Shown here: positions 5,450-34,794 of the stretch, in pieces | Layout of the letters: every line of letters begins with the position of its first letter | Numbering within the stretch: position 1 is the first letter of the stretch | Assembly (NCBI GenBank): GCA_028701715.1 | Contig: JAQVQF010000001.1 | Location: 1 to 37,963, forward strand | Length of the DNA stretch: 37,963 bases | Origin: Eubacteriales bacterium | Lineage (GTDB): Bacteria > Bacillota > Clostridia > Oscillospirales > CAG-382 | Direction of reading: 5' to 3' | Position numbers and translations under genes: made by a program | Notes under the pieces: model-generated | Told to the model about the DNA's origin: nothing | Database searches by the model: none | What the model saw: only the letters and a program-made list of their open reading frames with translations

Positions 5450-6610
5450 ATGGCCGACGCTTCAGATAAGTTCAAACAGGATTTTGTAACGGAAAAACGC
5501 AAAGCATCCGACAGAAAGCTTAAGATCGGCATAATCGGCACGGGCTGGATAGCGGAGTGCCACATGGACAGCTATAAAAAGCAAAAGGATGTCGAGATAA
5601 CGGCGGGCGCGGATCTTATCCCGGGCAAGGCGCAGGCTTTCTTTAAAAAATACGGGATGAAAAACGTTCGCTGCTATCCGAGCCACAAGGAGATGCTCGA
5701 CAGCGAGGAGCTTGACGCGGTTTCGGTATGCACCTACAACAAGACACACGCCGAATGTACCGTTTACGCGCTGAACAAGGGCGTAAACGTGCTGCTCGAA
5801 AAGCCCATGTGCGTCACTCTCGACGAGGCCGCAGCCATATGCAGAGCGGAAAAAGCAAGCGGCAAGGTGCTGTCCATAGGCTTTCAGCCCAGATTCGACG
5901 GCAACATGCAGGAAATCAAAAAAATCGTGGAATCCGGCAAGCTGGGTAAGGTTTATTACATACAAACGGGCGGGGGCAGACGCCGCGGCATACCCACACC
6001 CTTCGGCACCTCATTTATCTCAAAGGACACCGGCTGTATAGGAGCGCTGGGCGATATCGGCTGCTATTCTCTCGACATGGTTTTAAACGCCGTAGGCTAT
6101 CCGAAACCGCTGACCGTAACGGGATACAAGTCGGATTTCTTCGGCAAAAATCCCGCGAATTATCCTAAGCATCCCGAATATGCCGAAATTTTCGGCGTGG
6201 ATGATTTCGCCGCGGCGTTTATACGTTTGGAGGGCGGTATAATCCTCGACTTCCGCATAGCGTGGGCGATGAACATGGACACCCCCGGCGACACCGTAAT
6301 ACTCGGCACAAAGGGCGGCTTGCGCATACCCTCGACCGAATGCTGGAACGGCTCGGTAGGCGGCAATATGAAGCTCTACCACGAGGTGGCGGGCACTCAA
6401 TGCGAAACCGTTATACCCCTTGTGGAAACAGTTCCGTTTGAAAGGCTTTTTGATTTCAAGATACGCTCCTTCCTTGACGCGGTGATATACGGCGATCCTG
6501 TCGCGGTGCCCTCAAGCCAGATAATCATAAATCAGGCGATTATCGACGGCATCAACCGTTCGTCGGAGCTTGGTAAGGAAATTGAAATTAATATACCGGA
6601 AATATCATAA
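5450..6610 (+). CDS. Gfo/Idh/MocA family NAD(P)-dependent oxidoreductase
   Basis: 386 aa. It has the Rossmann N-terminus KIGIIGTGWIAECH and the ...NVLLEKPM... motif. It starts 18 nt after the upstream gene, with an AGGAG RBS. Confidence 0.9.
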   Translation: MADASDKFKQDFVTEKRKASDRKLKIGIIGTGWIAECHMDSYKKQKDVEITAGADLIPGKAQAFFKKYGMKNVRCYPSHKEMLDSEELDAVSVCTYNKTHAECTVYALNKGVNVLLEKPMCVTLDEAAAICRAEKASGKVLSIGFQPRFDGNMQEIKKIVESGKLGKVYYIQTGGGRRRGIPTPFGTSFISKDTGCIGALGDIGCYSLDMVLNAVGYPKPLTVTGYKSDFFGKNPANYPKHPEYAEIFGVDDFAAAFIRLEGGIILDFRIAWAMNMDTPGDTVILGTKGGLRIPSTECWNGSVGGNMKLYHEVAGTQCETVIPLVETVPFERLFDFKIRSFLDAVIYGDPVAVPSSQIIINQAIIDGINRSSELGKEIEINIPEIS

Positions 6611-12620: not shown

Positions 12621-14039
12621 ATGCGTTCTGCCAAACGCAAAGGTTTCACAATTGTGGAGCTTGTTATAATAATAGCCGTGATTGCGCTCCTCGCAAGCGT
12701 GCTTGTCCCGGTTTTCGGCGGTATTGTTACCAAAGCAAAACGTTCTTCCGCCATGCAGGAGGCGAAAAACCTGCTCACCATGTTAAATTCCGCTTATATT
12801 GCGGAAAACGAGGGTAAGCCGCTTCCGGAGGGAATTGTTCTTGAAAGCGGAGGATACTGGTTTGTATATATTGAAAACAGGCTTTATGAAATCGCTTTAT
12901 CGGGGGAAACCGATTCGGGCGATACCTCTTTTTCCCTTTGGAGCTCGCCGCAATCAAAGGGCGGCGCTTCAGAAATAGCAGCTGTTTTAAATAACGCTCC
13001 GGCAGCTCCCTTCACGATAACCGTCGACGGGGTGGAACGCGAATGCACCGATATCGGCTGTGTGATAACCGATACGGACGAATATGTTTTTGCTTTTTAT
13101 TCCTTAAACGGGCTTGCCGTAGCGGAAAGCGGATACTGCTGCGGAATATACGCGGGTTCGGTTATAAACACGGCAGAATGGTTGAGCGTTCCCCCGGATT
13201 CCACGGATGAAATTCCGAATTCCTCCGGTGAGCCCGATATTCCCATATATTCCGTTTCGTTTGAATTAAACAACTGCGCCGCAGACGGCGCGCCTTCCTG
13301 CTCTCCCGATCACGATTATTCGGTTGCCGTAACTCCCGACGATAACTTTACTCTGTCAGGATCTCCGCTATTAACAATAAACGGAGCTGCTTATAACGGT
13401 TATACATGGAGCGGGGACGATGTTTATATCCTCACCGTACCTAAGGAAGATATAACCGGGGATATTACCGTATCCGTAACCGCGCAGGGTAAAAGCTTTT
13501 CGTTTGGCGTCACGGCGGTCGGCTGCACCGTTGATTCCGCAAACGGTTCCGCGCAATACGGAACAAATCTTACACTCCAATTTACTCCGGGTAATAAATA
13601 TTCGCTTTTTAACTCCACTTTAAATGTAAAAATAGGAGATATACCATGTATTAATGAATTGGAATATTCGTGGAACGATGAAAGCGGTCTTCTTATTATA
13701 TACGGTAATTATATAACAAACAATATTACCGTTTCCGTTACTGCTGTATTATCAAAATGTACATTTATATATAACACTGATATATTATCTCTTAGCATTG
13801 TTGATATAAATAATAAACCAATCGTTATAGGATTAGATGATTATTATATTGACATTGGAAAAGATTTTTCATTTCATATTTTATGCTCGAGCAATATCCA
13901 AACAGTTTATATCGCTATAGTTATAAAAAACAATTTATATTATTTTGAAAACAAACCTGTTGATGAAATTATTACAATAATCGGTAATACAATTAATGCA
14001 GATGTAGATGTTTATATATCTTATCAACCAATATATTAA
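12621..14039 (+). CDS. prepilin-type N-terminal cleavage/methylation domain protein, unusually large (472 aa), with three tandem C-terminal modules
   Basis: The N-terminus MRSAKRKG|FTIVELVIIIAVIALLASVLV has Gly at -1, Phe at +1 and Glu at +5 followed by a hydrophobic helix, the class III signal of type IV pilins and pseudopilins. GGAGG RBS. Three ~80-90-aa modules end in ITGDITVSVTA / ITNNITVSVTA / INADVDVYISY. Confidence 0.85.
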   Translation: MRSAKRKGFTIVELVIIIAVIALLASVLVPVFGGIVTKAKRSSAMQEAKNLLTMLNSAYIAENEGKPLPEGIVLESGGYWFVYIENRLYEIALSGETDSGDTSFSLWSSPQSKGGASEIAAVLNNAPAAPFTITVDGVERECTDIGCVITDTDEYVFAFYSLNGLAVAESGYCCGIYAGSVINTAEWLSVPPDSTDEIPNSSGEPDIPIYSVSFELNNCAADGAPSCSPDHDYSVAVTPDDNFTLSGSPLLTINGAAYNGYTWSGDDVYILTVPKEDITGDITVSVTAQGKSFSFGVTAVGCTVDSANGSAQYGTNLTLQFTPGNKYSLFNSTLNVKIGDIPCINELEYSWNDESGLLIIYGNYITNNITVSVTAVLSKCTFIYNTDILSLSIVDINNKPIVIGLDDYYIDIGKDFSFHILCSSNIQTVYIAIVIKNNLYYFENKPVDEIITIIGNTINADVDVYISYQPIY

Positions 14040-14155: not shown

Positions 14156-16957
14156 ATGGCGTTACAGCATTTTTTCTCAAGAGTCCCCGCAAGGATGTCC
14201 ATGTTCCGCAAATGCGACAGCTTCGACACCTTCGCGAAATCCAAGGAGCTGACAAAGGAGTACATAAACGGCAATCTGACAAAGATCTGCGAATATAAGC
14301 CGACAGAAGAGGAGCTTGACTTTATTTTACAGGACAAGCTGCCGCCGGTTTACTGCGCTTGCTTCGGCAGGGACGGCGAGGACCTCATCCAGTCGAAATT
14401 TTCCTTTGTTTCTTCGGATTATACCGGCGAACGTCCGAGCTGGCTTTGCCATTCCCTCATATTGAATAAAAACGAAAGCAATCTGCTGTACGGCCGTCCG
14501 GATTCGGTTATGCTAAACCGCGAGGCTTTTCGGCTTTCGCTTGGCGATTTTAACCTCACGGACAAAACCGCCCGTTATATAAACGACTGCCCGACGCCGG
14601 AATATCCCGCGGCGGAAATCGGCTCTCTCACCGCCTGGGCGGAAGGCTATGACGAGCTTGTTATGAAAAAAATTATTTTCGCCGTAATGAACGCCGCCGC
14701 TTCCAATCAGAAGAATGTTTACATAAGCCTTGCGAAGCCGCTCGATACGCTTTCCGAGGAAGCGCTGGATTTTATAAACCGTCTTATGCTTATATTCCCC
14801 GGCGCGGTCAGAAGAAAGATATCGTTTATCACGGAATATAATGACAGCATACAGACTAAAAATTATAAAATTCGTTTTATTCCCGGTCACCTTACGGACC
14901 TTTGCGGCAATCGCGGTTATGTGGTCGACACCGGCAGGAAAATTTCCTACGGCGTTTACGAGGACGATCTTACCGCGGTTAAGGATGAGCTGGATTTTTT
15001 GTACAGCCTTTTTTCCGACGGCAAAACCAGAATAAGCTTTCTCGCGTTTTATGACGAGGCGGCTTCCTCACGCCGTGAAAGCTTGTCCTTCAGCCTGAAA
15101 ATTTTCCTTGACCTTATATATCTTTTCCGCCGAATATGCGGCAAATACGGTGAAAACGAAATCGTCCCGGACGACAACGCCGTGCTGAGGATGATAACCA
15201 CCTATGAAAAATACAGGACCTATTTAAAAACGGAAGACAGGCGGAGTATACTTTCGGTGCTTGACAGATATTCCGAAAGCCGTCTGGCAATACCTCAGAC
15301 AATTTTCACAAGGATAGGTAAAATATACGTTTCCGAGCCCGAGCAGTGCAAAAAGGTCATTATGACCGTGGTTCTTGATCTGCTGCACACGAATATCATG
15401 CGCGACAAGCTGTTCGCTTTTATCGATTCGACCTATGAAAGCGAATCCGCCGCCAGCCGGGATATTATCTGCGAGGATTTATCGAGAGTATTTTACGGCG
15501 GGTTCCTGCAATCGGATATACTGGATTTCTACGGCAAGCATTTCGGCAATGAATCCGAAGCCGTGAAGGAAATTATACTCGAAAAACTCCTTATGACAAT
15601 CCGCACCGAAACCATACAAAGGAAAATACTTGACTTTATCGATAAATATCAGGCATCCGTACCGCCGCATCTCAAGCAGATGATATATCACACCTTTTAT
15701 GAAATGCTGCCCGAAAACGATATGCTTTCCAAGCGTATAATACCGGTAATGGGAAGATGCATGGCCGCTGACGATGAAGAAACAAAGCAGCGTGTTTTTG
15801 AAAGCCTGTTATCCCTTATTTATGCGGACGAGGAAAAGGGCGGCGGCGCATTGCTGGAAATATGCCTTTCCGGTGTGAGAAACAATCTGCCTTTAGGCAA
15901 TATGCTGGTGAAAAGAGCTTTCGGCGAATGGAACGGCGACGCGCGGTTCGAAACGGTGTTAAACAGCTTTCTGGGCGGCTCGCTTATTTCCGTCGGCAAC
16001 GCTCTCAAGCTGCTTTGGGATCTTGTTCCCGTTATTCCCGACGGCGCATATAAAAGGCTGTACGAAAAAGCGTCCGCGCTTATCGTCTCCGTTTCACAGA
16101 AAAACGACCTTTTCGATTTTTTGGATTTCGATAAAAAAGTTCGCGACGCGCTTCGCGAAAGCGGTTCGCAAAACGGCGGGCGTTTTTACGGCGAGCTATA
16201 TTCATCGGTTATAATACCCCTTGTGGGAACCAAGCTTTCCGACGCGTTCAACACTAACCGCAATAAAATCGGTCTGCAGGCGATACTCGATTTAGCGCAG
16301 AGCGAGGAAAAGCTCAAGGAGCTCCCCGGAACGGAGGTCATAAAAGCGGTTATCATGGTTGTTGACCTTGTAAACAAGGGCAGGCATGAAGCCGCTCTCG
16401 GAACACTGATGAACATTCCGCTTTACATGGAATCCGGAAAATTGGTTTCGGAAACCCTCAAAACAGAATTTACCGGTATCGAGGACGCTTCCAACAACAC
16501 GGGAGATATTTACCGGGACGCGGTCATGGGCGCCATGTATTCATATCTTGAAAACGGGAAAATACTCCTTGGCGGAATTTTCGGCAAATGTCTCGAAAGA
16601 AAACGCGCTTTCGACCTTTACAACAAGCCCGTAAAAACCAAATCCTCCGCAAAGGACATCCAGGACGAGGACAGCAGGACAGCCATGACGGTTTTCGCAG
16701 GCATTGTGCGTCTTTGCGTTGCGGTCGGCGTCATGGATTGCGCAAAAGAGGTAAAGGACCAGCTGTTCGCAAACCCCGACAGCGAGCTGGACAAGCTTGC
16801 GAAACGCATACTTGCCGGAGCTACAAAAAAATCCAAGGATTTATACTTTGAAATATATAATTACGCACGACACGGTTCGTTGCGCATAGCGCGCAAGCTT
16901 GAGTCTGCCGTAATGAATACGGACGATTGCCCCAGAGCATTCAAAAAGCTGTTCTAA
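14156..16957 (+). CDS. hypothetical 933-aa soluble, predominantly helical protein
   Basis: A long ORF with neighbour-like codon usage and a GAGGG RBS 4 nt before the ATG. I see no TM segment, no Walker A (GxxxxGK[ST]) and no metal or nuclease motif. It is tightly coupled to pilT, with an 11-nt gap. Confidence 0.85.
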   Translation: MALQHFFSRVPARMSMFRKCDSFDTFAKSKELTKEYINGNLTKICEYKPTEEELDFILQDKLPPVYCACFGRDGEDLIQSKFSFVSSDYTGERPSWLCHSLILNKNESNLLYGRPDSVMLNREAFRLSLGDFNLTDKTARYINDCPTPEYPAAEIGSLTAWAEGYDELVMKKIIFAVMNAAASNQKNVYISLAKPLDTLSEEALDFINRLMLIFPGAVRRKISFITEYNDSIQTKNYKIRFIPGHLTDLCGNRGYVVDTGRKISYGVYEDDLTAVKDELDFLYSLFSDGKTRISFLAFYDEAASSRRESLSFSLKIFLDLIYLFRRICGKYGENEIVPDDNAVLRMITTYEKYRTYLKTEDRRSILSVLDRYSESRLAIPQTIFTRIGKIYVSEPEQCKKVIMTVVLDLLHTNIMRDKLFAFIDSTYESESAASRDIICEDLSRVFYGGFLQSDILDFYGKHFGNESEAVKEIILEKLLMTIRTETIQRKILDFIDKYQASVPPHLKQMIYHTFYEMLPENDMLSKRIIPVMGRCMAADDEETKQRVFESLLSLIYADEEKGGGALLEICLSGVRNNLPLGNMLVKRAFGEWNGDARFETVLNSFLGGSLISVGNALKLLWDLVPVIPDGAYKRLYEKASALIVSVSQKNDLFDFLDFDKKVRDALRESGSQNGGRFYGELYSSVIIPLVGTKLSDAFNTNRNKIGLQAILDLAQSEEKLKELPGTEVIKAVIMVVDLVNKGRHEAALGTLMNIPLYMESGKLVSETLKTEFTGIEDASNNTGDIYRDAVMGAMYSYLENGKILLGGIFGKCLERKRAFDLYNKPVKTKSSAKDIQDEDSRTAMTVFAGIVRLCVAVGVMDCAKEVKDQLFANPDSELDKLAKRILAGATKKSKDLYFEIYNYARHGSLRIARKLESAVMNTDDCPRAFKKLF

Positions 16958-16968
16958 GGAGTAAAGCA

Positions 16969-18000
16969 ATGATTTACAGCGATAAAATAGACGGTTATCT
17001 TGATACCTGTATAAGCGCCAGAGCATCCGACCTTCACCTGAAGGCTTCCATGAATCCTTTTATGAGATATTCCGGGGGGCTTAAATCCATCGACGCCTTC
17101 CCTCTTGACACGACGGAGGTTTACAATTTTATACAGCAGGTGCTCACGCCGGAGCAAAAGGAGAAATATGCTTCGGGCGGCGAGGCGGATTTTTCCTTTT
17201 CGTATTCCGATTACCGCTTCCGCTGCAACGCCTATCACGACCTGCACGGCGACAATCTTGCCCTGCGTCTTTTGGCGCTGGAGCCGGGTGATTTTTCGAA
17301 TTTGGGCATACCGCTTATCCTCAAGGATTTTTCAAAAAAAAGAAGCGGTCTGATACTTATAACAGGTCCCACGGGTTCGGGTAAATCCACTACGCTGACC
17401 TGCATGATAGATTATATAAACGAAAACAAAAACGCTCATATCATAACCCTTGAGGACCCTGTCGAATACATACACACGAGCAAAAAATGCGTCATAACTC
17501 AAAGAGAAATAGGGAAAAACACAAAATCGTTCGGAAAAGCCATCGAAGCGGCAATGCGGCAGGACCCCGATATTATAATGGTGGGTGAAATGCGCGATCT
17601 CGAAAGCGTCGCGGCGGCTATCGCGGCCGCGGAAACCGGACACCTTGTGCTTTCAACCCTTCACACCAAGGGCGCGGAAAGCACGGTCGACCGTATTATA
17701 GATATGTTCCCCGCCGCACAGCAGAACCAAATTCGGGTGCAGCTGGGAATGACGCTGCTTTTGGTATGCTGCCAGCAGCTTGTGCCGGGACTCGAAAGAG
17801 GAAGACGCCATCTTGCCGCGGAGGTTATGGTATGCAATCAGGCAATCCGCAATCTTATCCGTGTCGGGAAAACGCATATGATTTCCTCCACCATGCAAAC
17901 TTCCCGCAAAGAGGGCATGTTTATTATGAAGGATTCGCTTGAAAAGCTCTATACGGAAGGCAAAATTTCCGAAGATGACAAAGAACAGTTTATGTTTTGA
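16969..18000 (+). CDS. pilT: type IV pilus twitching-motility (PilT-family) hexameric ATPase
   Basis: 343 aa from ATG 16969; an AAGGAG RBS lies at 16956-16961 inside the end of the upstream gene. Motifs: ASDLHL, Walker A GPTGSGKST (17365-17391), EDPVEY, Walker B DPDIIMVGEMRD, His box TGHLVLSTLHT, and AIRNLIRVGK. The track start at 16927 is an upstream extension. Confidence 0.9.
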   Translation: MIYSDKIDGYLDTCISARASDLHLKASMNPFMRYSGGLKSIDAFPLDTTEVYNFIQQVLTPEQKEKYASGGEADFSFSYSDYRFRCNAYHDLHGDNLALRLLALEPGDFSNLGIPLILKDFSKKRSGLILITGPTGSGKSTTLTCMIDYINENKNAHIITLEDPVEYIHTSKKCVITQREIGKNTKSFGKAIEAAMRQDPDIIMVGEMRDLESVAAAIAAAETGHLVLSTLHTKGAESTVDRIIDMFPAAQQNQIRVQLGMTLLLVCCQQLVPGLERGRRHLAAEVMVCNQAIRNLIRVGKTHMISSTMQTSRKEGMFIMKDSLEKLYTEGKISEDDKEQFMF

Positions 18001-18069: not shown

Positions 18070-18753
18070 ATGGGCATTGATACGGACAAATCCGCCGGAT
18101 ATTTCCCTTTTTACGGCAGGCTTGCGAATGAGCAAAAAACGGTTCTGTTATCCAATCTGCAAAAGCGGCGCTTTAATAAAGGCGACATAATCCACAGCGG
18201 AGCCGAAGACTGTATAGGGCTGCTTTTGGTTACCGAAGGTCAGCTTAGGGTATACGCGCTTTCTGACGAAGGCAAGGAGCTTACGCTGTACCGACTGTTC
18301 GAACGCGATATGTGCCTGTTTTCGGCCTCCTGCATTATGGCAAGCATTCAGTTTGAAGTAATGATTTCCGCAGAGCGGGACACGCAGACGCTTATCGTGC
18401 CCGCGCTCGTTTACAAGCAGCTGATGACAGATTCCGCCGCGGTGGCGAATTATACAAACGAGCTTATGGCGTCGCGCTTTACGGAAGTCATGTGGCTTAT
18501 AGACCAAATACAGAACAAAAAGCTCGATTCGCGTCTGGCGGCTTTCTTAATCGAGGAAAGCTATCTGACATCGGACAATGTTCTTTCCATCACTCATGAG
18601 GCTATCGCCAACCATCTGGGAAGCATTCGTGAGGTTATCACGCGAATGTTAAAATATTTTCAGGAAGAAGGGCTTGTAAAACTGGGACGCGGGTACATAA
18701 ACCTTACGGACACGGTAAGGCTGACGGATATGGCGAAGAACAGCTTAAAATAA
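18070..18753 (+). CDS. Crp/Fnr family transcriptional regulator (cNMP-binding domain + C-terminal HTH)
   Basis: 227 aa. The beta-roll region is ...FNKGDIIHSGAEDCIGLLLVTEGQLRVYALSDEGKELTLYRL... and the C-terminal HTH is ...SITHEAIANHLGSIREVITRMLKYFQEEGLV... There is no N-terminal Cys cluster. AAAGGAGAG RBS. Confidence 0.88.
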   Translation: MGIDTDKSAGYFPFYGRLANEQKTVLLSNLQKRRFNKGDIIHSGAEDCIGLLLVTEGQLRVYALSDEGKELTLYRLFERDMCLFSASCIMASIQFEVMISAERDTQTLIVPALVYKQLMTDSAAVANYTNELMASRFTEVMWLIDQIQNKKLDSRLAAFLIEESYLTSDNVLSITHEAIANHLGSIREVITRMLKYFQEEGLVKLGRGYINLTDTVRLTDMAKNSLK

Positions 18754-19649: not shown

Positions 19650-22094
19650 ATGAAAACTGTTATAATAGGCGGTGTGGCGGGAGGGGCATCCTGCGCCGCA
19701 AGACTTCGCAGACTGGATGAAAACGCCGAAATCGTAATCCTTGAAAAAGGCGAATATATTTCCTACGCCAACTGCGGGCTTCCCTACCATGTGGGAGGCG
19801 TGATAAAGGAAAGGGACGTCCTTATACTTCAATCGCCCGAGGCTATGAAGGCAAAGTTCGCCATAGATATACGCACAAGGAATGAAGTGACGGCTATAAA
19901 CCGCGATAAAAAGACCGTTACGGTAAAACGGACGGATACCGGTGAAAGCTATGAGGAAGCTTACGACAAGCTTGTGATCGCCACGGGCTCCTCGCCCGTA
20001 CGGCCGCCCATACCGGGTATAGATTCCCCGCGAATAAAAACATTATGGACGATACCCGATACGGATGCCGTAATCGCTCTCATCAAAGAAAGGAACGTTA
20101 AAAAAGCGGCGGTTATAGGCGGCGGCTTTATAGGGCTTGAAATGGCGGAAAATCTCTGCCACGCGGGTGTTAAAGTGGCGGTTGTGGAAATGCTCGATCA
20201 GGTGATGGCTGCTCTCGATTACGAGATGGCGCAGCTTGTTCACCGACACCTTGCCGAAAACGGGGTGGAGCTTTATCTTTCCGACGGAGTGAGCGGTTTT
20301 TCCGATAACGCGGACGGCATAGCAGTAAATTTAAAAAGCGGGAACACTGTCGCCGCCGACATGGTAATTTTAGCAATCGGGGTGCGTCCCAACGGCGCGC
20401 TTGCGAAGGACGCGGGGCTTGAGGTAAACGCGCGCGGCGGAATTGTCACGGACGACCGTCTGCGTACTTCCGACAAGGATATTTACGCCGTGGGCGACGT
20501 TATCGAGGTGGAGGATTTTATCTTCGGCGACCGAACGATGATACCGCTCGCCGGTCCCGCAAACAAACAGGGGCGAATCGCCGCGGACAATATCGCCGGA
20601 GCGGATGAAGCTTACAGCGGTACACAGGGCTCGTCCGTCGCCAAGGTGTTCGATCTCACCGTCGCTTCCACGGGTGCCGCCGAAAAAGCGCTTACAAAGC
20701 GCGGGCTGGTCAAGGGTAAGGATTACGAAACCGTCATTATTGTACAAAATTCACACGCGGGTTATTACCCCGGCGCGGTGCCCATGACTTTAAAGCTTGT
20801 GTTCGCGTCCGACGGCTCGAGGATATACGGCGCGCAGATAATAGGCAGCGAGGGCGCGGATAAGCGTATCGATACCATAGGCGCGGCAATAAGGCTCGGC
20901 GGCACGGTTAAAGACCTGAAAAATCTTGAATTTGCCTATGCGCCCCCTTATTCGTCCGCAAAGGACCCGGTAAACATGCTCGGATTCGCGGCGGAAAATC
21001 TTATTGCGAAAAAAATGCGATTTACGGACTGGGACGGCGTCGAAAAGGACAAAAACGCCTTTCTTATAGACGTGCGCGAGTACGCGGAGGTTACCGGTTT
21101 TGCGGTGCCCGGCGCGCTCAATATTCCTTTGGGAGAGCTTCGCGGAAGAATAAACGAGCTTACTCCTTACAGGGATAAACATATAATTATATTTTGCGCC
21201 ATAGGCGTGCGCTCCTACAGCGCCGCGCGGATACTGGCTCAGCTCGGCTTCGGCAATGTTTCCGTCTATCCGGGCGGCAGCCGTTTCTATAAATCCACGC
21301 ATTATAAGGAATTCGATACAAATACAAAAAAATTAAAGCAGTCATCAACGCAGGTCAAACCGGTTTTCGGCAAAGCCTTAACCCTTGATTGCAGCGGGCT
21401 GCAATGCCCCGGGCCCATAATGAAGGTTTATGAAACCGTACAGGCAATGACAGACGGCGAAACGCTGGAAATTTCGGCTTCCGACCCCGGCTTTGTCAGC
21501 GACATCGACACCTGGTGCCGCCGCACGGGAAACACCTTGATTTCAAAGGGACGCAAGGATAATATATATACTGCCTTAATTCAAAAAAGCTTGTCTTCAA
21601 CGACGTCGGCGGTACGCGACACCGCGGACGGAAAAACCATTATAGTGTTTTCGGGCGACCTCGACAAGGTGCTGGCGAGCTTTATAATTGCCAACGGCGC
21701 CGCCGCGATGGGCAGGAAGGTCACCATGTTCTTCACCTTCTGGGGGTTGACCGTGCTGCGAAGATCAAATAAACAGAAGCTTAAGAAGACCTTTATGGAA
21801 GCCATGTTCGGACGTATGTTGCCCCGCGGGAGCGGCAAGCTCAAGCTTTCCAAAATGAATATGGGCGGCATGGGCACCGCGATGATGAAACGAATAATGA
21901 AGGATAAAAACGTCGATTCTCTCGATGCGCTGATACAGAAAGCAATAAAAAGCGGCGTGAGGATTGTCGCCTGCACAATGAGCATGGACGTTATGGGAAT
22001 TAAAAAAGAGGAGCTTATCGACGGCGTGGAGTTTGCCGGAGTCGGCTCATACCTCGGCGACGCGGAGGAATCCAACGTAAATCTGTTTATATAA
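19650..22094 (+). CDS. four-domain fusion: CoA-disulfide/persulfide reductase-like FAD oxidoreductase + rhodanese + TusA-like + DsrE/DsrF-like
   Basis: 814 aa. Motifs seen: FAD GxGxxG (IIGGVAGGASCA), redox Cys42 in SYANCGLPY, NAD site VIGGGFIGLE. Also a rhodanese loop FCAIGVRS (Cys516, nt 21195-21197), TusA CPGP (Cys586, nt 21405-21407) and a DsrE-like tail (...IIVFSGDLDK...VACTMSMDVMG, Cys775). Confidence 0.88.
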   Translation: MKTVIIGGVAGGASCAARLRRLDENAEIVILEKGEYISYANCGLPYHVGGVIKERDVLILQSPEAMKAKFAIDIRTRNEVTAINRDKKTVTVKRTDTGESYEEAYDKLVIATGSSPVRPPIPGIDSPRIKTLWTIPDTDAVIALIKERNVKKAAVIGGGFIGLEMAENLCHAGVKVAVVEMLDQVMAALDYEMAQLVHRHLAENGVELYLSDGVSGFSDNADGIAVNLKSGNTVAADMVILAIGVRPNGALAKDAGLEVNARGGIVTDDRLRTSDKDIYAVGDVIEVEDFIFGDRTMIPLAGPANKQGRIAADNIAGADEAYSGTQGSSVAKVFDLTVASTGAAEKALTKRGLVKGKDYETVIIVQNSHAGYYPGAVPMTLKLVFASDGSRIYGAQIIGSEGADKRIDTIGAAIRLGGTVKDLKNLEFAYAPPYSSAKDPVNMLGFAAENLIAKKMRFTDWDGVEKDKNAFLIDVREYAEVTGFAVPGALNIPLGELRGRINELTPYRDKHIIIFCAIGVRSYSAARILAQLGFGNVSVYPGGSRFYKSTHYKEFDTNTKKLKQSSTQVKPVFGKALTLDCSGLQCPGPIMKVYETVQAMTDGETLEISASDPGFVSDIDTWCRRTGNTLISKGRKDNIYTALIQKSLSSTTSAVRDTADGKTIIVFSGDLDKVLASFIIANGAAAMGRKVTMFFTFWGLTVLRRSNKQKLKKTFMEAMFGRMLPRGSGKLKLSKMNMGGMGTAMMKRIMKDKNVDSLDALIQKAIKSGVRIVACTMSMDVMGIKKEELIDGVEFAGVGSYLGDAEESNVNLFI

Positions 22095-30754: not shown

Positions 30755-31756
30755 ATGGCTTTCTGCCTCAATTGCGGTAAAAAGATTGACGACAGTAACG
30801 GTAAGACCTTGTGTTCCGATTGCGAAAAAGCGATTTCACAAACGGCCGACTTAAACCGAAGCCGGGACCGGAACACCTTATATCCGGAAAACACGACCCG
30901 GTATAATAATAATCAAACACAAAAGCAAGCCTTTATGCCCGGCGGCATATGCAGACTGTCCGCCTCGCCTTCGGTCGGGGAAACCGCCGTTATGCTGCTT
31001 CCCAAAAGCGGTCTTACGGGCACATTAAATCCGTTTACCGCGGTATTCGGCAGCATTAAGCGATTTGTTTGCGGATTTAAGAGTCTTTTTAAAAACAAAA
31101 AAAAGTTAATTCCGGCTCTTGTTCTTGCGTTTTTGTGGATTCTGCTTTCGCTGCTTCCCATGCTCGGTGTCAATAATGCAGCGGTTAAGACGCTTTCCTC
31201 GCTGACCTTCGCTCAGGGCGGATACAGTAAAAATATTGTTAATATTATCGGCGGCTTGCTCGGCAAGGGTATGGTTGCCGCCGTTTTCGTATCCCTGTTT
31301 TCGGGCGGGCTGAAAAGCACGTCGGGAGGTTTAAAACAAACCGTTTCTTCTTTTAAAAATTCTATAAAAAATACGGAAAGCTTCTGCTTATGGCTTATGG
31401 GAACGGGATTTGCTCTCGTTTTTTATAACTTTACCGTCGGAAAAGCATCGGTGTGGCAGGGTATGGCGGGAATAGCGGGTTTGCTGCTCTGTCTGAGAGC
31501 CTTCGGTACGAGCGGCGGGTTTCTGCGTAATATATTAACCTCGCTGACCGCGAACAAATCAAACGGAATAAGGCATGAAAACAAAATATCGCTGCAAAGT
31601 CTTCTTTCGGGTATGGCATGCGGCTTTGCTATCGCCGTTATTATGTCGCCCATACCCTTCGCTTATGCCCCGTATTGCGCGGGCTTGGCGTTTACGGTGA
31701 CGGCGGCGGTATCGCTTTTGGTGTTAAGGCCGGCTAAAGGGAGGGCGGTTACATGA
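30755..31756 (+). CDS. zinc-ribbon domain polytopic membrane protein
   Basis: 333 aa. The N-terminus has CLNCG-x12-CSDC (a four-Cys zinc ribbon). It is followed by about 5 hydrophobic helices (e.g. LIPALVLAFLWILLSLLPMLGV, FCLWLMGTGFALVFYNF, PYCAGLAFTVTAAVSLLVL). GGGAGAGGAA RBS. Confidence 0.8.
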   Translation: MAFCLNCGKKIDDSNGKTLCSDCEKAISQTADLNRSRDRNTLYPENTTRYNNNQTQKQAFMPGGICRLSASPSVGETAVMLLPKSGLTGTLNPFTAVFGSIKRFVCGFKSLFKNKKKLIPALVLAFLWILLSLLPMLGVNNAAVKTLSSLTFAQGGYSKNIVNIIGGLLGKGMVAAVFVSLFSGGLKSTSGGLKQTVSSFKNSIKNTESFCLWLMGTGFALVFYNFTVGKASVWQGMAGIAGLLLCLRAFGTSGGFLRNILTSLTANKSNGIRHENKISLQSLLSGMACGFAIAVIMSPIPFAYAPYCAGLAFTVTAAVSLLVLRPAKGRAVT

Positions 31757-34700
31757 AAAAGCTGTGCTGCTCGCTCGTTTTACTGATCCTGTTCTTCAAT
31801 GCTTTCCCGATAATATCATTTGCGGAAGAAGCCAAAACCGAAACGGTTGATCCGTACGAATATTTAGGCGTAAATACTTTTGACGAGGTTATGGAGTACA
31901 TAAGTATAGGTAGGGATAAAGACTATAATCCTCTTAAAGTCAAAAGTATCGACATCGATATTGTTTCCCAGATAACCTTTTATTCAATGAATTCTACAGA
32001 AAATTCCTATCCCGTGTCGTTGCCTTCTATGGTTACGATAGAATTTACAAGCGGAAGCAGCGTAAATCTGCCCTTTTCCACCGGCGAAATCGTCCACATG
32101 GATGATGAATGGAGGCTTGCGACCGAAGAATTCGACGGTACAATAGTAATTGATATAATCACGGGTTCGGAAGGCTGGGGCTACTACTCCTATAAGGCAT
32201 ATTTTATAGGTTCCGTAAAATCCAGAACAAGATTAGGCAGAGTAGAGGACGGCAATGTCGAAAGTATTTATACCAATCAATATACGGCTGAAAATCCTCT
32301 GTCGGTAAACTTCAGTTACAGAACATACCTTCACGGCGACGATACTTCCGACGATAACTGGAGACAAATTACCGTGTCGTTTGAATCGCTTTGCTATGGC
32401 GCTCAATGGTTTAAATTTATTATGACACCGGGAAAAATGGTGGTTGAAACAACGCCCGCGCAGACCAGCGACGTTACCGTAAGCACGGATGCCGATGAAA
32501 CCGCGGGCGAGACCTCAATTCCCGTGCCTGTCGCCATAGTGGTGGGCGTGCTGGGAATCGGCGCGTCTTTGGCGGCCGCAGCCGGAATCACGGGCGGCGG
32601 CGACGGAGGGGACGACGGCGGCAAAAAAAATTCCAAGTATAAGCTGTGTATTAAGAAGGATTTCGGAGACAGCATAGCTTACAACAGAAAGCCTGTGACG
32701 GTGTACGCCCGTATGTGCGAAATAACTCCGGAAGGCAGGGAGCTTGACAGACCCGATTTGACCTCAAATATCAGAATATTCTCGAGCGGGAATCCCATTA
32801 CGGTTGATAGCCTCTTTGTGTCCGGCAATTATATGGCCGCCAATATCAGCGCGGAAGCCGCCGCCGGAACCGTCACGGAAAAGACGGGCATAATATCCTT
32901 CGCTTATACCGGTGAAGGCGGCACATTCCGCAACGATGTGACCTTCAGACTGATAGGCGAGCCGTACATCTCCTTCCCTGAGCAAAAGAGCTACAGCGGC
33001 AGAATGTTCGTAGACGTTATCGCAGGCGACGGCTGCGAATACGAGTTGACAATTGATCTGTGCGACTTTACGAAAGAAGCGGAAAATGTTAAGTTTGCTT
33101 CCGAAAGCGGCGAAGCGAAGGCGGAATTCGAGAAAATCGCGCCGTATAAATACAAGGCAATCATACACAATCTGACCTCGGCGTCGTCCGACAAGAGCTG
33201 CTTCGCCAGGGTTAGATATATTCCGATTACGGTGACGGCCGAAAACGATATCGAAAAAGCCGAAAATGTCTTCGAGCTTGCGGTATATCCCGAAGGTCTG
33301 TCGGTGAGAAGCGACGCTGTTAAGGATGACAAACTCTGTATAAGGTCCTATGACAATCCCGACGCCGGCGATCTCGATTACAAGATAAAGCCGACAAGAT
33401 TCGATCTTGTCCTTGCGGTCAGAGAGAAAAACGCGGAAGGCAAGGAAAAAGCGATAATTGCAGATATGAAGGAAGCAACATCCTCCTTCGCAAAGCTTAA
33501 GGGTACCGGTAAAGATACGGAGGAGCTTTTAAAAGCATATAAATACAAGCTCGACGATTCCTCAAAGACCGACGGTATATTCCGTATTATTCCGGAAACA
33601 AGCATTCCGGAACTCGGTTCGCCTTATTATGTCACACTGCCTGTACGCTGCGAATACCGTTCCGGATCATATTCCGTCGATATACCCTGCCGGCTTGTCG
33701 GAGAACGCGAGGAAAAGCCCTCGGAACGGGATATCGAATACAGGAAGCTGATAGACCGCGTCAAACGCTATGTTCCCGAAGAGGAATGGTCGGCGGTGCT
33801 TAAAAATATAAAATCCAACGCCGACACCATGTCGATTATGACGATGCATGCATTGAGCAAGAGCATTATATACACCGCGCAGGCAAGGTTCCTCAACGAA
33901 TCCGAATCGCAGCGCGCCTGGGCGGATGCCCTCGACTGGATGATTTACGGGCTTGAGTGGGCGAAATGGTTCGGTGACCAGGCGTTCGCATATCTTGCCA
34001 CCGTCTATACAGGTCCCGTGGGAGAAGCCCTGCTTTCGCCCGCCAAGGAAATACTCACCAACCTTATAGGTGAGGTGGGCGTGCAGATAGTTTACGGCGA
34101 AAAATTCGATTTCGAAAGCCTGCAGATAATGAATAATCTTTCTGCGGCTCTCGATAATCTGATAATGACCTCCGCCGACCCTTCGAGACTTGACATAAGG
34201 CAGATGGCGACGGTGCTCGCCGGCTTCCTCATAGTGAACGCGGCAAAGAATTATGTGCTGAATGTCGATAAGGACGGCAAGCGCGACTTTTATAAAGCGA
34301 TAACCGACGCGTTCGGCAATCTGACGGTTAACGCCATGAAGATACTTTGCAGCGATCTGTTCGGCAAGGCGATGAAGAGCCAAGCGGTTAAATCGGCTAT
34401 GAATACTCAATGCGGTAAATGGATAAAAACCTCGCTTGTCAAATATCTGCCCGATATGGACATATTCTTTTCCAATAACGAACGTATGGTTAGTATTGAA
34501 AAGCTCGCCATACTCGACAAGTATATTTCGGAAATATGCGGGCTCGGCGCGGCGACGGTATTTAAAAAAGCAAGCGAAAGCGTTATAGATTTCACTCCGG
34601 ACGATGTCGTTTTCAGCTTTGTGCTCTGGGAAAACACCGCAAACCCGGACGATTCAATTGTTGTGAAGGTCAGCTTGAAGGCGGTGGGAGAAAAGCTGTA

Positions 34701-34794
34701 TAATTTCATGTTCAACGCTTTGTTCGGCGCTTTCCCGTTTGCGTTGTCTCCCGTCGACCCCCCCAAGGATCCGCCGTTTATAGTAACAGCCTGA
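31753..34794 (+). CDS. hypothetical 1013-aa single-pass membrane protein (signal peptide, ~230-aa ectodomain, TM, Gly/Asp linker, ~720-aa cytoplasmic region)
   Basis: ATGA start/stop overlap with the upstream gene; GGGAGGG RBS. The signal peptide is MKKLCCSLVLLILFFNAFPIISFA|EE. The TM IPVPVAIVVGVLGIGASLAAAAGI (about nt 32518-32589) is followed by GGGDGGDDGGKKNSKYK, which fits positive-inside. I recognise no catalytic motif. Confidence 0.85.
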   Translation: MKKLCCSLVLLILFFNAFPIISFAEEAKTETVDPYEYLGVNTFDEVMEYISIGRDKDYNPLKVKSIDIDIVSQITFYSMNSTENSYPVSLPSMVTIEFTSGSSVNLPFSTGEIVHMDDEWRLATEEFDGTIVIDIITGSEGWGYYSYKAYFIGSVKSRTRLGRVEDGNVESIYTNQYTAENPLSVNFSYRTYLHGDDTSDDNWRQITVSFESLCYGAQWFKFIMTPGKMVVETTPAQTSDVTVSTDADETAGETSIPVPVAIVVGVLGIGASLAAAAGITGGGDGGDDGGKKNSKYKLCIKKDFGDSIAYNRKPVTVYARMCEITPEGRELDRPDLTSNIRIFSSGNPITVDSLFVSGNYMAANISAEAAAGTVTEKTGIISFAYTGEGGTFRNDVTFRLIGEPYISFPEQKSYSGRMFVDVIAGDGCEYELTIDLCDFTKEAENVKFASESGEAKAEFEKIAPYKYKAIIHNLTSASSDKSCFARVRYIPITVTAENDIEKAENVFELAVYPEGLSVRSDAVKDDKLCIRSYDNPDAGDLDYKIKPTRFDLVLAVREKNAEGKEKAIIADMKEATSSFAKLKGTGKDTEELLKAYKYKLDDSSKTDGIFRIIPETSIPELGSPYYVTLPVRCEYRSGSYSVDIPCRLVGEREEKPSERDIEYRKLIDRVKRYVPEEEWSAVLKNIKSNADTMSIMTMHALSKSIIYTAQARFLNESESQRAWADALDWMIYGLEWAKWFGDQAFAYLATVYTGPVGEALLSPAKEILTNLIGEVGVQIVYGEKFDFESLQIMNNLSAALDNLIMTSADPSRLDIRQMATVLAGFLIVNAAKNYVLNVDKDGKRDFYKAITDAFGNLTVNAMKILCSDLFGKAMKSQAVKSAMNTQCGKWIKTSLVKYLPDMDIFFSNNERMVSIEKLAILDKYISEICGLGAATVFKKASESVIDFTPDDVVFSFVLWENTANPDDSIVVKVSLKAVGEKLYNFMFNALFGAFPFALSPVDPPKDPPFIVTA

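Follow-up and report, generated by a model that had tools for sequence, protein, structure and literature searches.

The stretch of DNA considered here (the window, 37,963 nucleotides of contig JAQVQF010000001.1 in assembly GCA_028701715.1, from a metagenome-assembled Eubacteriales bacterium of the Oscillospirales) encodes a GAP1-like protein of 933 amino acids (aa), which we call GAP1L (locus tag PHW77_00085), directly upstream of a gene for a PilT/PilU-family retraction ATPase of type IV pili (T4P) (Table 1). GAP1L is a divergent GAP1-N2-type protein, and its gene is the PilT-linked paralogue of a family that is mostly linked to the pilus assembly ATPase PilB. The open reading frame (ORF) is genuine, and its translation begins with the N-terminus quoted in a preliminary description of this DNA, which had been made from the sequence alone. 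The ATPase gene starts at an ATG 11 nt past the GAP1L stop codon; its product was recognized by TIGR01420 (413.8 bits, cut-off 319.1) and by the Pfam model T2SSE (E = 1e-48), and its orthologues at three related loci (L006, L009 and L011) are likewise 343 aa long.

Table 1. Features of GAP1L and its neighbours, in window coordinates.
Feature	Position	Strand	Evidence
GAP1L gene, 933-aa GAP1-like protein, PilT-linked paralogue of a T4P-associated family	14156..16957	+	ORF, translation, homologues
GAP1-N2 domain, aa 4-110, longin-like topology beta-beta-alpha-beta-beta-beta-alpha	14165..14485	+	Pfam PF20013, invariant columns, DSSP
GAP1-M domain, aa 158-258, alpha/beta; together with GAP1-N2 resembles TagF and DENN modules	14627..14929	+	Pfam PF20014, Foldseek
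All-helical solenoid, aa 289-933, HEAT/ARM-like, no nucleoside triphosphatase (NTPase) motifs	15020..16954	+	AlphaFold2, Foldseek
Family-specific conserved helical block, aa 330-530, motifs HTxxMRDKLF (HTDxMRDKLF) and VFYGGFLQ	15143..15745	+	Identity, invariant columns
C-terminal basic hydrophobic tail CPRAFKKLF, short variant of the GFFxKLFGKK-type tail	16928..16954	+	Family tails
Ribosome-binding site AAGGAG across the stop codon of GAP1L, with 7 nt between it and the PilT ATG	16956..16961	+	Direct reading
PilT/PilU-family retraction ATPase of 343 aa, start codon ATG at 16969 (TTG at 16927 in the ORF list)	16969..18000	+	TIGR01420, T2SSE
472-aa prepilin-like protein, signal MRSAKRKG followed by FTIVELVIIIAVIALLA, large beta-rich C-terminal part	12621..14039	+	Pfam N_methyl, E = 1.2e-4
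Crp/Fnr-type regulator, conserved neighbour downstream of GAP1L-PilT in the clade	18070..18753	+	Pfam HTH_Crp_2, cNMP_binding

The preliminary description had likened the first ~110 residues to GAP1-N2, and profile comparisons bear this out. The Pfam model GAP1-N2 (PF20013) matched aa 4-110 with 29.2 bits (E = 1.1e-6), and a second model that had gone unnoticed, GAP1-M (PF20014), matched aa 158-258 with 28.9 bits (E = 1.3e-6), the curated cut-off being 24 in both cases. No competing known domain was found. Among 48 aligned homologues, GAP1-N2 matched all 48 and GAP1-M matched 43. The motifs that had first suggested the likeness are present: PPVY stands at aa 63, and DYTGER, at aa 88, is followed by W96 and H99. 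Residues D21, D24, T25, D88, T90, E92, R93 and H99 of GAP1-N2 are conserved within the family, and D24, D88, T90, G91, R93, H99, P215 and R219 are kept from the GAP1-N2/GAP1-M signature.

Homologues of GAP1L number 99, of about 880-950 aa. When 1.84 billion cluster representatives were searched exhaustively with the family profile, only 341 relatives came up, in two tiers. The first comprises ~65 full-length family members scoring above 650 bits; after a steep fall, the second scores ~110-140 bits, with the match limited to positions 1 to ~330 of the family profile. Ten second-tier proteins are canonical GAP1, with 135-167 bits for GAP1-N2 and 70-107 bits for GAP1-M, as against ~29 bits for either domain in GAP1L, and the canonical proteins used for comparison were drawn from this search. 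When the family was compared with 30 canonical GAP1-N2 proteins using hhalign, the two aligned with a probability of 99.9% (E = 2e-35), and the program paired QHFYSR of the family with QQYYTR of the canonical proteins, FDTFAxS with YDTIAKS, and DYTGERSxYLVH with DFTGxRSTFFTH. Because of this E-value, and with the signature motifs aligned, we class GAP1L as a divergent GAP1-N2-type protein. The alignment extends to column 698, though it leaves the family's conserved block (aa 330-470) mostly unmatched.

Other searches added little. Lenient Pfam scans of aa 259-933 yielded neither GAP1-C nor any other domain, and no Pfam model named GAP1-C matched GAP1L or the ten canonical GAP1 proteins. A protein search started from the N-terminal family alignment returned only truncated fragments of the same family and no canonical GAP1. 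For GAP1L itself, NCBIfam assigned no family, Pfam and NCBIfam gave no match to named T4P families (PilM/N/O, PilZ and others), the PADLOC defence models produced merely a chance-level match (0.016), the PHROGs phage library produced nothing, and PDB sequence searches with full-length and N-terminal family profiles produced chance matches only. A scan of all 933 aa found neither [AG]xxxxGK[ST] nor HExxH, in agreement with the preliminary description. At the start of GAP1-M (family ~aa 180-190), many family members carry an element of the form helix-CGKGK(T)-strand, where canonical GAP1 has GKKKVYISLD. We considered helix-CGKGKT-strand as a Walker A motif and rejected it, since its topology is the opposite one and the window protein lacks the element (SNQKNVYISL).

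Canonical GAP1 proteins are part of DO-GTPase-centred conflict systems (Kaur, Burroughs, Iyer and Aravind, 2020, eLife; PMC7159879), in which GAP1 is encoded downstream of a DO-GTPase or fused to it and almost always adjoins its GTPase (PMC7159879). At a control locus (L089), the canonical GAP1 P0198 lies directly after a DO-GTPase gene, with a vWA gene nearby, a layout that agrees with the published description (Kaur et al., 2020; PMC7159879). The GAP1-N2 and GAP1-M domains of GAP1L and canonical GAP1 are homologous and carry the same signature residues, and the two also have in common a similar overall size, a helical C-terminal region, a predicted membrane-proximal role and an immediately adjacent NTPase gene. 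Yet that adjacent gene encodes PilB or PilT, not a DO-GTPase, and the GAP1L family is inherited vertically inside a pilus operon. In addition, canonical proteins match the family profile over positions 1 to ~330 only, and the family carries a conserved helical block of its own, with a MinD-like tail instead of fused transmembrane or effector parts. None of the Pfam families FNIII, tubulin, vWA, HSP70/GrpE or kinase/PP2C was found among the window neighbours or in the metagenomic contexts of homologues. Because neither a DO-GTPase nor FNIII or other partner genes accompany it, we file GAP1L as a GAP1-N2-type protein recruited into the T4P machinery, not as a member of a GTPase-centred system.

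A module known as a GTPase partner had been described as paired here with a PilT-type ATPase, and this pairing not only holds in the window but generalizes. Our species-level scan, with one genome per species, covered 80 loci, all from metagenome-assembled genomes of uncultured gut/rumen Clostridia type; ORFs at each locus were labelled by BLASTP, and 77 of the loci were informative. PilB lies immediately upstream of the family gene in 66 of these, mostly with gaps of 13-75 nt, the family gene there closing a T4P operon after PilD, PilC and PilB, and PilT lies immediately downstream in 3, giving 69 pilus-linked loci in total. The same arrangement was seen in five of five metagenomic contexts of distant homologues (~30% identity), where the family gene is the last of a T4P operon, directly after PilB. 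The order in these five is large and small pilins, an unannotated ORF of ~400 aa, the prepilin peptidase PilD (missing in one), PilC, PilB (with MshEN and T2SSE domains) and GAP1L. The ~400-aa ORF (390-535 aa), which lies ~5 kb upstream of GAP1L and before the prepilin peptidase in the T4P operons of loci L001-L088, has no Pfam match; the label 'PilM-like' that we considered for it is positional only and was dropped.

The PilT-linked loci (L006/L009, L010 and L011) form the clade of the window gene, with 68-69% protein identity, common downstream genes and gaps between GAP1L and PilT of 9-44 nt when the window is included. Both paralogues, PilB-linked and PilT-linked, occur on separate contigs in the genomes SBF912LR0HQ0076 and UBA1389 (locus pairs L009 + L044 and L011 + L052), and in a neighbour-joining tree they fall on distinct deep branches. 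At L010 (10001-12804), the PilT-linked orthologue is split into ORFs of 304 and 744 aa, probably by a frameshift or an assembly error. At L044 (8395-9942), a 515-aa ORF with a weak SAP-domain match stands between PilB and the PilB-linked paralogue.

Among the genes near the family gene, only PilB and PilT have a conserved Walker A motif. No GTPase was found in the ~10 kb around GAP1L, either in the window or at the 69 pilus-linked loci, nor did the pilus-linked operons contain another conserved P-loop protein, and the unannotated operon ORFs gave no GTPase-like Pfam matches. In a mirror-tree comparison, distances between GAP1L proteins correlated with the corresponding distances for PilB, PilC, PilD and the ~400-aa ORF (r = 0.73-0.87), and therefore the family gene is inherited and evolves with the operon, although the comparison does not reveal which protein GAP1L binds. 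It had no match on plasmids or phages. The family gene is a fixed component of T4P operons in uncultured gut/rumen Clostridia, linked to the operon as a whole and not only to PilT.

One outgroup of the family, at L048 (1-13309), encodes a protein of 1121 aa with a GAP1-N2 match, three genes downstream of a GTPase. This GTPase (581 aa) has two zinc ribbons, the motifs GSHNSGKT, DGPGE and NKFD, and a weak DO-GTPase2 match, and its cluster further includes a protein of 866 aa and a number of ORFs with no Pfam match. L048 is a plausible bridge to the canonical systems and may be an undescribed GTPase-centred variant.

An AlphaFold2 model of GAP1L built with 48 homologues (mean predicted local distance difference test score, pLDDT, 87.7) has one alpha/beta domain at aa 1-113, another at aa 158-285 and then an uninterrupted run of helices over aa 289-933, in keeping with the helix-rich composition pointed out in the preliminary description. 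Its remark that there is no obvious transmembrane helix needs some qualification: aa 842-860, the sole notable hydrophobic stretch of the protein, is fairly hydrophobic (Kyte-Doolittle 1.95 over 19 aa), yet it is modelled within the solenoid. Full-length Foldseek searches returned generic HEAT/ARM solenoids only (CAND1, importins, AP-2), with template modelling scores (TM-scores) of ~0.2, and are uninformative. Mean pairwise identity within the family is 0.50 in GAP1-N2, 0.35 in GAP1-M, 0.46 in the block of aa 286-530 and ~0.2 in the last 400 aa. The helical block of aa 286-530 is specific to the family, being unmatched by canonical GAP1 and mostly gapped in the hhalign comparison.

When aa 1-290 were modelled separately (pLDDT 90.3, predicted TM-score 0.90), DSSP gave its elements a longin-like order, after which comes an alpha/beta domain resembling the DENN core. 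The best solved match in Foldseek was Acinetobacter baylyi TagF (9t0n; E = 4e-5, probability 1.0, TM-score 0.41), followed by DENND10 (8p0v_M; E = 6.6e-4, probability 0.97, TM-score 0.35), Pseudomonas TagF (2qnu and 6iz8; E ~0.02), and FLCN and FNIP2 (E = 0.02-0.06). The N-terminal ~290 aa are thus predicted to fold like longin and DENN-type modules, with low TM-scores that mark a resemblance and not a proof of homology. Literature searches linking TagF, DENN, longin and type VI secretion systems (T6SS) gave nothing relevant, so the resemblance to TagF and DENN is one seen by Foldseek only, and none of longin, DENN or TagF comes up in the GAP1 paper (PMC7159879).

TagF has two domains and works post-translationally, as an inhibitor or as a checkpoint of the T6SS, by binding Fha, Hcp and TagZ (PMC5995506; bioRxiv 10.64898/2025.12.08.692957). 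Like aa 1-290 of GAP1L, it has an alpha+beta domain followed by an alpha/beta domain (9t0n, 2qnu, 6iz8). TagF is an accessory protein of the cytoplasm, as GAP1L would be, and the gene of each lies within the cluster for an envelope nanomachine. A further possible likeness is that TagF acts by binding components of its machine (PMC5995506). In contrast to GAP1L, TagF is only ~220-320 aa long, lacks a solenoid and belongs to Gram-negative T6SS, with no sequence similarity detected between the two, and the window contains no T6SS genes. We also compared by eye the published TagF loop (S79, D81, R85, P88) with the DYTGER loop; only D...R is common, S86 and P94 of GAP1L are not conserved in its family, and we claim no equivalence.

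The bipartite N-terminal module likewise resembles in fold the eukaryotic longin and DENN modules (DENND10, FLCN/FNIP2, GATOR1 subunits), although the E-values are weak, the TM-scores are 0.2-0.35 and no sequence similarity was found. In eukaryotes, longin/DENN modules are platforms that bind or regulate NTPases, namely small GTPases. Their partners differ from the hexameric secretion ATPases beside which GAP1L is encoded.

Most members of the GAP1L family end in a basic amphipathic tail similar to that of MinD, for example GFFSKLFGKK or GGFLKRLFKK. The C-terminus of E. coli MinD (NC_000913) reads EEEKKGFLKRLFGG, with KKGFLKRLFGG as its membrane-targeting tail, and the family tails come close to it; only the terminal ~10 residues are alike, the rest of the two proteins being unrelated. 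A strict tail motif was found at 34 of 79 family C-termini but only 1 of 823 control ORFs, and a loose pattern at 48 of 79 and 10 of 823, respectively. The window tail is among the 31 that fail the loose pattern, and its likeness to MinD was judged by eye. This short form, AFKKLF, is typical of the window clade, while outgroups have no such tail. The family tail resembles a membrane-targeting sequence and may act as one. Divergent tails (e.g. ...DAVNFLFRRK) occur in a subclade in which the family gene is flanked by ackA and pepF.

We hypothesize that GAP1L is a GAP1-N2-type protein that gut Clostridia took over from GTPase-centred systems for their T4P machinery. In the cytoplasm, close to the membrane, it may bind a pilus motor ATPase and act as its adaptor or regulator. 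It would be built of three parts: a longin plus DENN-like module (GAP1-N2 and GAP1-M), a conserved helical block continued by a variable alpha-solenoid, and a short basic amphipathic tail that could hold it at the membrane. Either the longin/DENN-like module or the conserved helical block could engage the hexameric ATPase, and GAP1L might thereby control the recruitment of the ATPase to the pilus base or its activity there. Most family members would then serve the assembly ATPase PilB, and the clade of the window paralogue the retraction ATPase PilT. Beside canonical GAP1, the place of PilB or PilT is taken by the DO-GTPase, which fits a swap of the NTPase partner. TagF offers an analogy, in that it gates T6SS assembly via protein-protein contacts. 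Known regulators of pilus ATPases, including PilZ/FimX for PilB, the cyclic di-GMP-binding MshEN domain and PilM/N/O, would be comparable by function only, in the timing or place of PilB/PilT engagement at the pilus base; they have no sequence or domain relationship to GAP1L. We give a role of GAP1L as membrane-proximal adaptor or regulator of the pilus motor, PilT in the case of the window paralogue, about even odds (roughly 0.5).

Several observations weigh against such a role. GAP1L is tied to PilT and PilB by gene adjacency alone, and the mirror-tree comparison does not single out the ATPase (0.83, as against 0.87 for the ~400-aa ORF). The contig does not contain the rest of the source organism's pilus genes, and 8 of the 77 informative loci carry the family gene without any pilus gene nearby, so it can persist outside the operon. 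The TM-scores to TagF and DENND10 are modest, and the likeness to TagF is one of fold only, with no match to TagF in Pfam or NCBIfam or among PDB sequences. Finally, the window tail is the shortest variant and fails the search pattern by having Ala at its first position.

GAP1L could belong to the pilus in ways other than by serving its motor. For example, it could scaffold the pilus base, structurally or for alignment, and bind PilC or the ~400-aa operon protein, its adjacency to PilB or PilT then being a matter of operon packing. The ~400-aa ORF shows the highest mirror-tree correlation with GAP1L (partial r = 0.53 given PilB), a long solenoid is a typical scaffold architecture, and PilM/N/O are not recognizable by Pfam in the family's T4P operons. 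However, fast-evolving proteins may correlate better merely through similar rates, the window clade retains PilT, tightly coupled, as its sole pilus neighbour, and canonical GAP1 pairs with an NTPase at the equivalent gene position; on balance, we consider a scaffold unlikely. The adjacency to PilT could also be incidental and the function of GAP1L unrelated to pili, as the 8 unlinked loci might suggest, five of which (L074, L078, L081, L085, L088) have the family gene between ackA (acetate kinase) and pepF (M3 oligoendopeptidase F). These copies are nested inside PilB-linked clades, and we therefore regard them as secondary relocations; with 69 of 77 loci pilus-linked, and the GAP1L-PilT pair kept in at least three other assemblies at the identities and spacings given above, mere coincidence is very improbable.

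Two further explanations start from the origin of the family instead of its present neighbours. GAP1L might still act with a GTPase encoded elsewhere, for instance a polarity or localization switch, and relay its signal to the pilus, in which case the NTPase partner would be unchanged. The retention of the eight signature residues is compatible with this, as are the GTPase near the outgroup at L048 and the fold matches to DENND10 and FLCN, longin/DENN modules of eukaryotes being generally known to bind small GTPases. But canonical GAP1 almost always adjoins its GTPase (PMC7159879), whereas the ~10 kb around the gene in the window and at the 69 pilus-linked loci holds none, which makes a remote GTPase decidedly unlikely. 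Alternatively, GAP1L could be an anti-phage conflict sensor in the sense of Kaur et al. (2020) that guards the pilus, a common phage receptor, with its variable C-terminal solenoid as a diversifying sensor surface; the systems from which the family descends have been read as conflict systems (PMC7159879), and the C-terminal 400 aa are only ~20% identical between members, as against 46-50% for the N-terminal half. We find this improbable, and less probable again than a remote GTPase: there is no effector domain and no PADLOC model match, no variable effector-type genes are found next to it, and the gene is fixed and vertically inherited in its operon, not part of a mobile island, with no plasmid or phage copies.

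A broader and distinctly tentative idea, to which we would give rather poor odds, is that Gram-positive gut bacteria have turned a longin/DENN-like module, of the fold by which eukaryotes control small GTPases, into motor-specific T4P adaptors, with one paralogue docking PilB at the membrane and another PilT. The pair would constitute a hitherto unrecognized switch between pilus extension and retraction, and GAP1 proteins in general might be TagF-related platforms for docking NTPases. Little is understood of T4P in Gram-positive anaerobes, and this family is carried by abundant uncultured Clostridia of gut and rumen; a large unannotated protein encoded in nearly every operon of this pilus type is a candidate controller of PilB or PilT. 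In the open-access literature covered, a link between GAP1 and T4P is unmentioned in the GAP1 paper (PMC7159879), a supplementary file and a survey of Gram-positive T4P. The linkage to T4P operons points to an undescribed pilus accessory factor, and it means that the GAP1 module is not tied to DO-GTPases or conflict systems. The predicted fold connects GAP1 with TagF of type VI secretion and with eukaryotic longin/DENN platforms, which suggests a common solution for regulating NTPase-driven machines. Residues D24, D88, R93 and H99, as candidate functional residues, and the candidate membrane tail offer themselves for testing.

The order GAP1L, PilT, Crp/Fnr-type regulator is repeated at L006, L009 and L011. 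In the window, the regulator gene is followed by genes with Pfam matches to thioredoxin, rhodanese and coenzyme A (CoA)-disulfide reductase, and directly downstream of PilT these four together make up a module of sulfur or redox genes. The CoA-disulfide-reductase-like protein (19650-22094, +) is 814 aa long and has additional rhodanese, TusA and DsrE_2 domains; its orthologues at L006 and L009, at 548-553 aa, have neither TusA nor DsrE_2. Two overlapping, co-oriented ORFs (30755-31756 and 31753-34794, +) encode proteins of 333 and 1013 aa with no Pfam match at E <= 1e-5. A GFO/IDH/MocA oxidoreductase (5450-6610, +) and a P-loop protein of the ABC_ATPase family PF09818 (22180-23940, -) are absent at the equivalent positions in the syntenic locus L006. 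Just upstream of GAP1L, the prepilin-like protein has a textbook class III signal (KRKG before FTIVE...) and is modular, with repeated '...ITVSVTA' segments in its C-terminal part. Its gene has a GC content of 41.4%, as against 47.4% for the window, and has no counterpart at the orthologous loci L006, L009 and L011. We take it for a lineage-specific neighbour, apparently a recent insertion upstream of GAP1L, and not for a conserved part of the unit.

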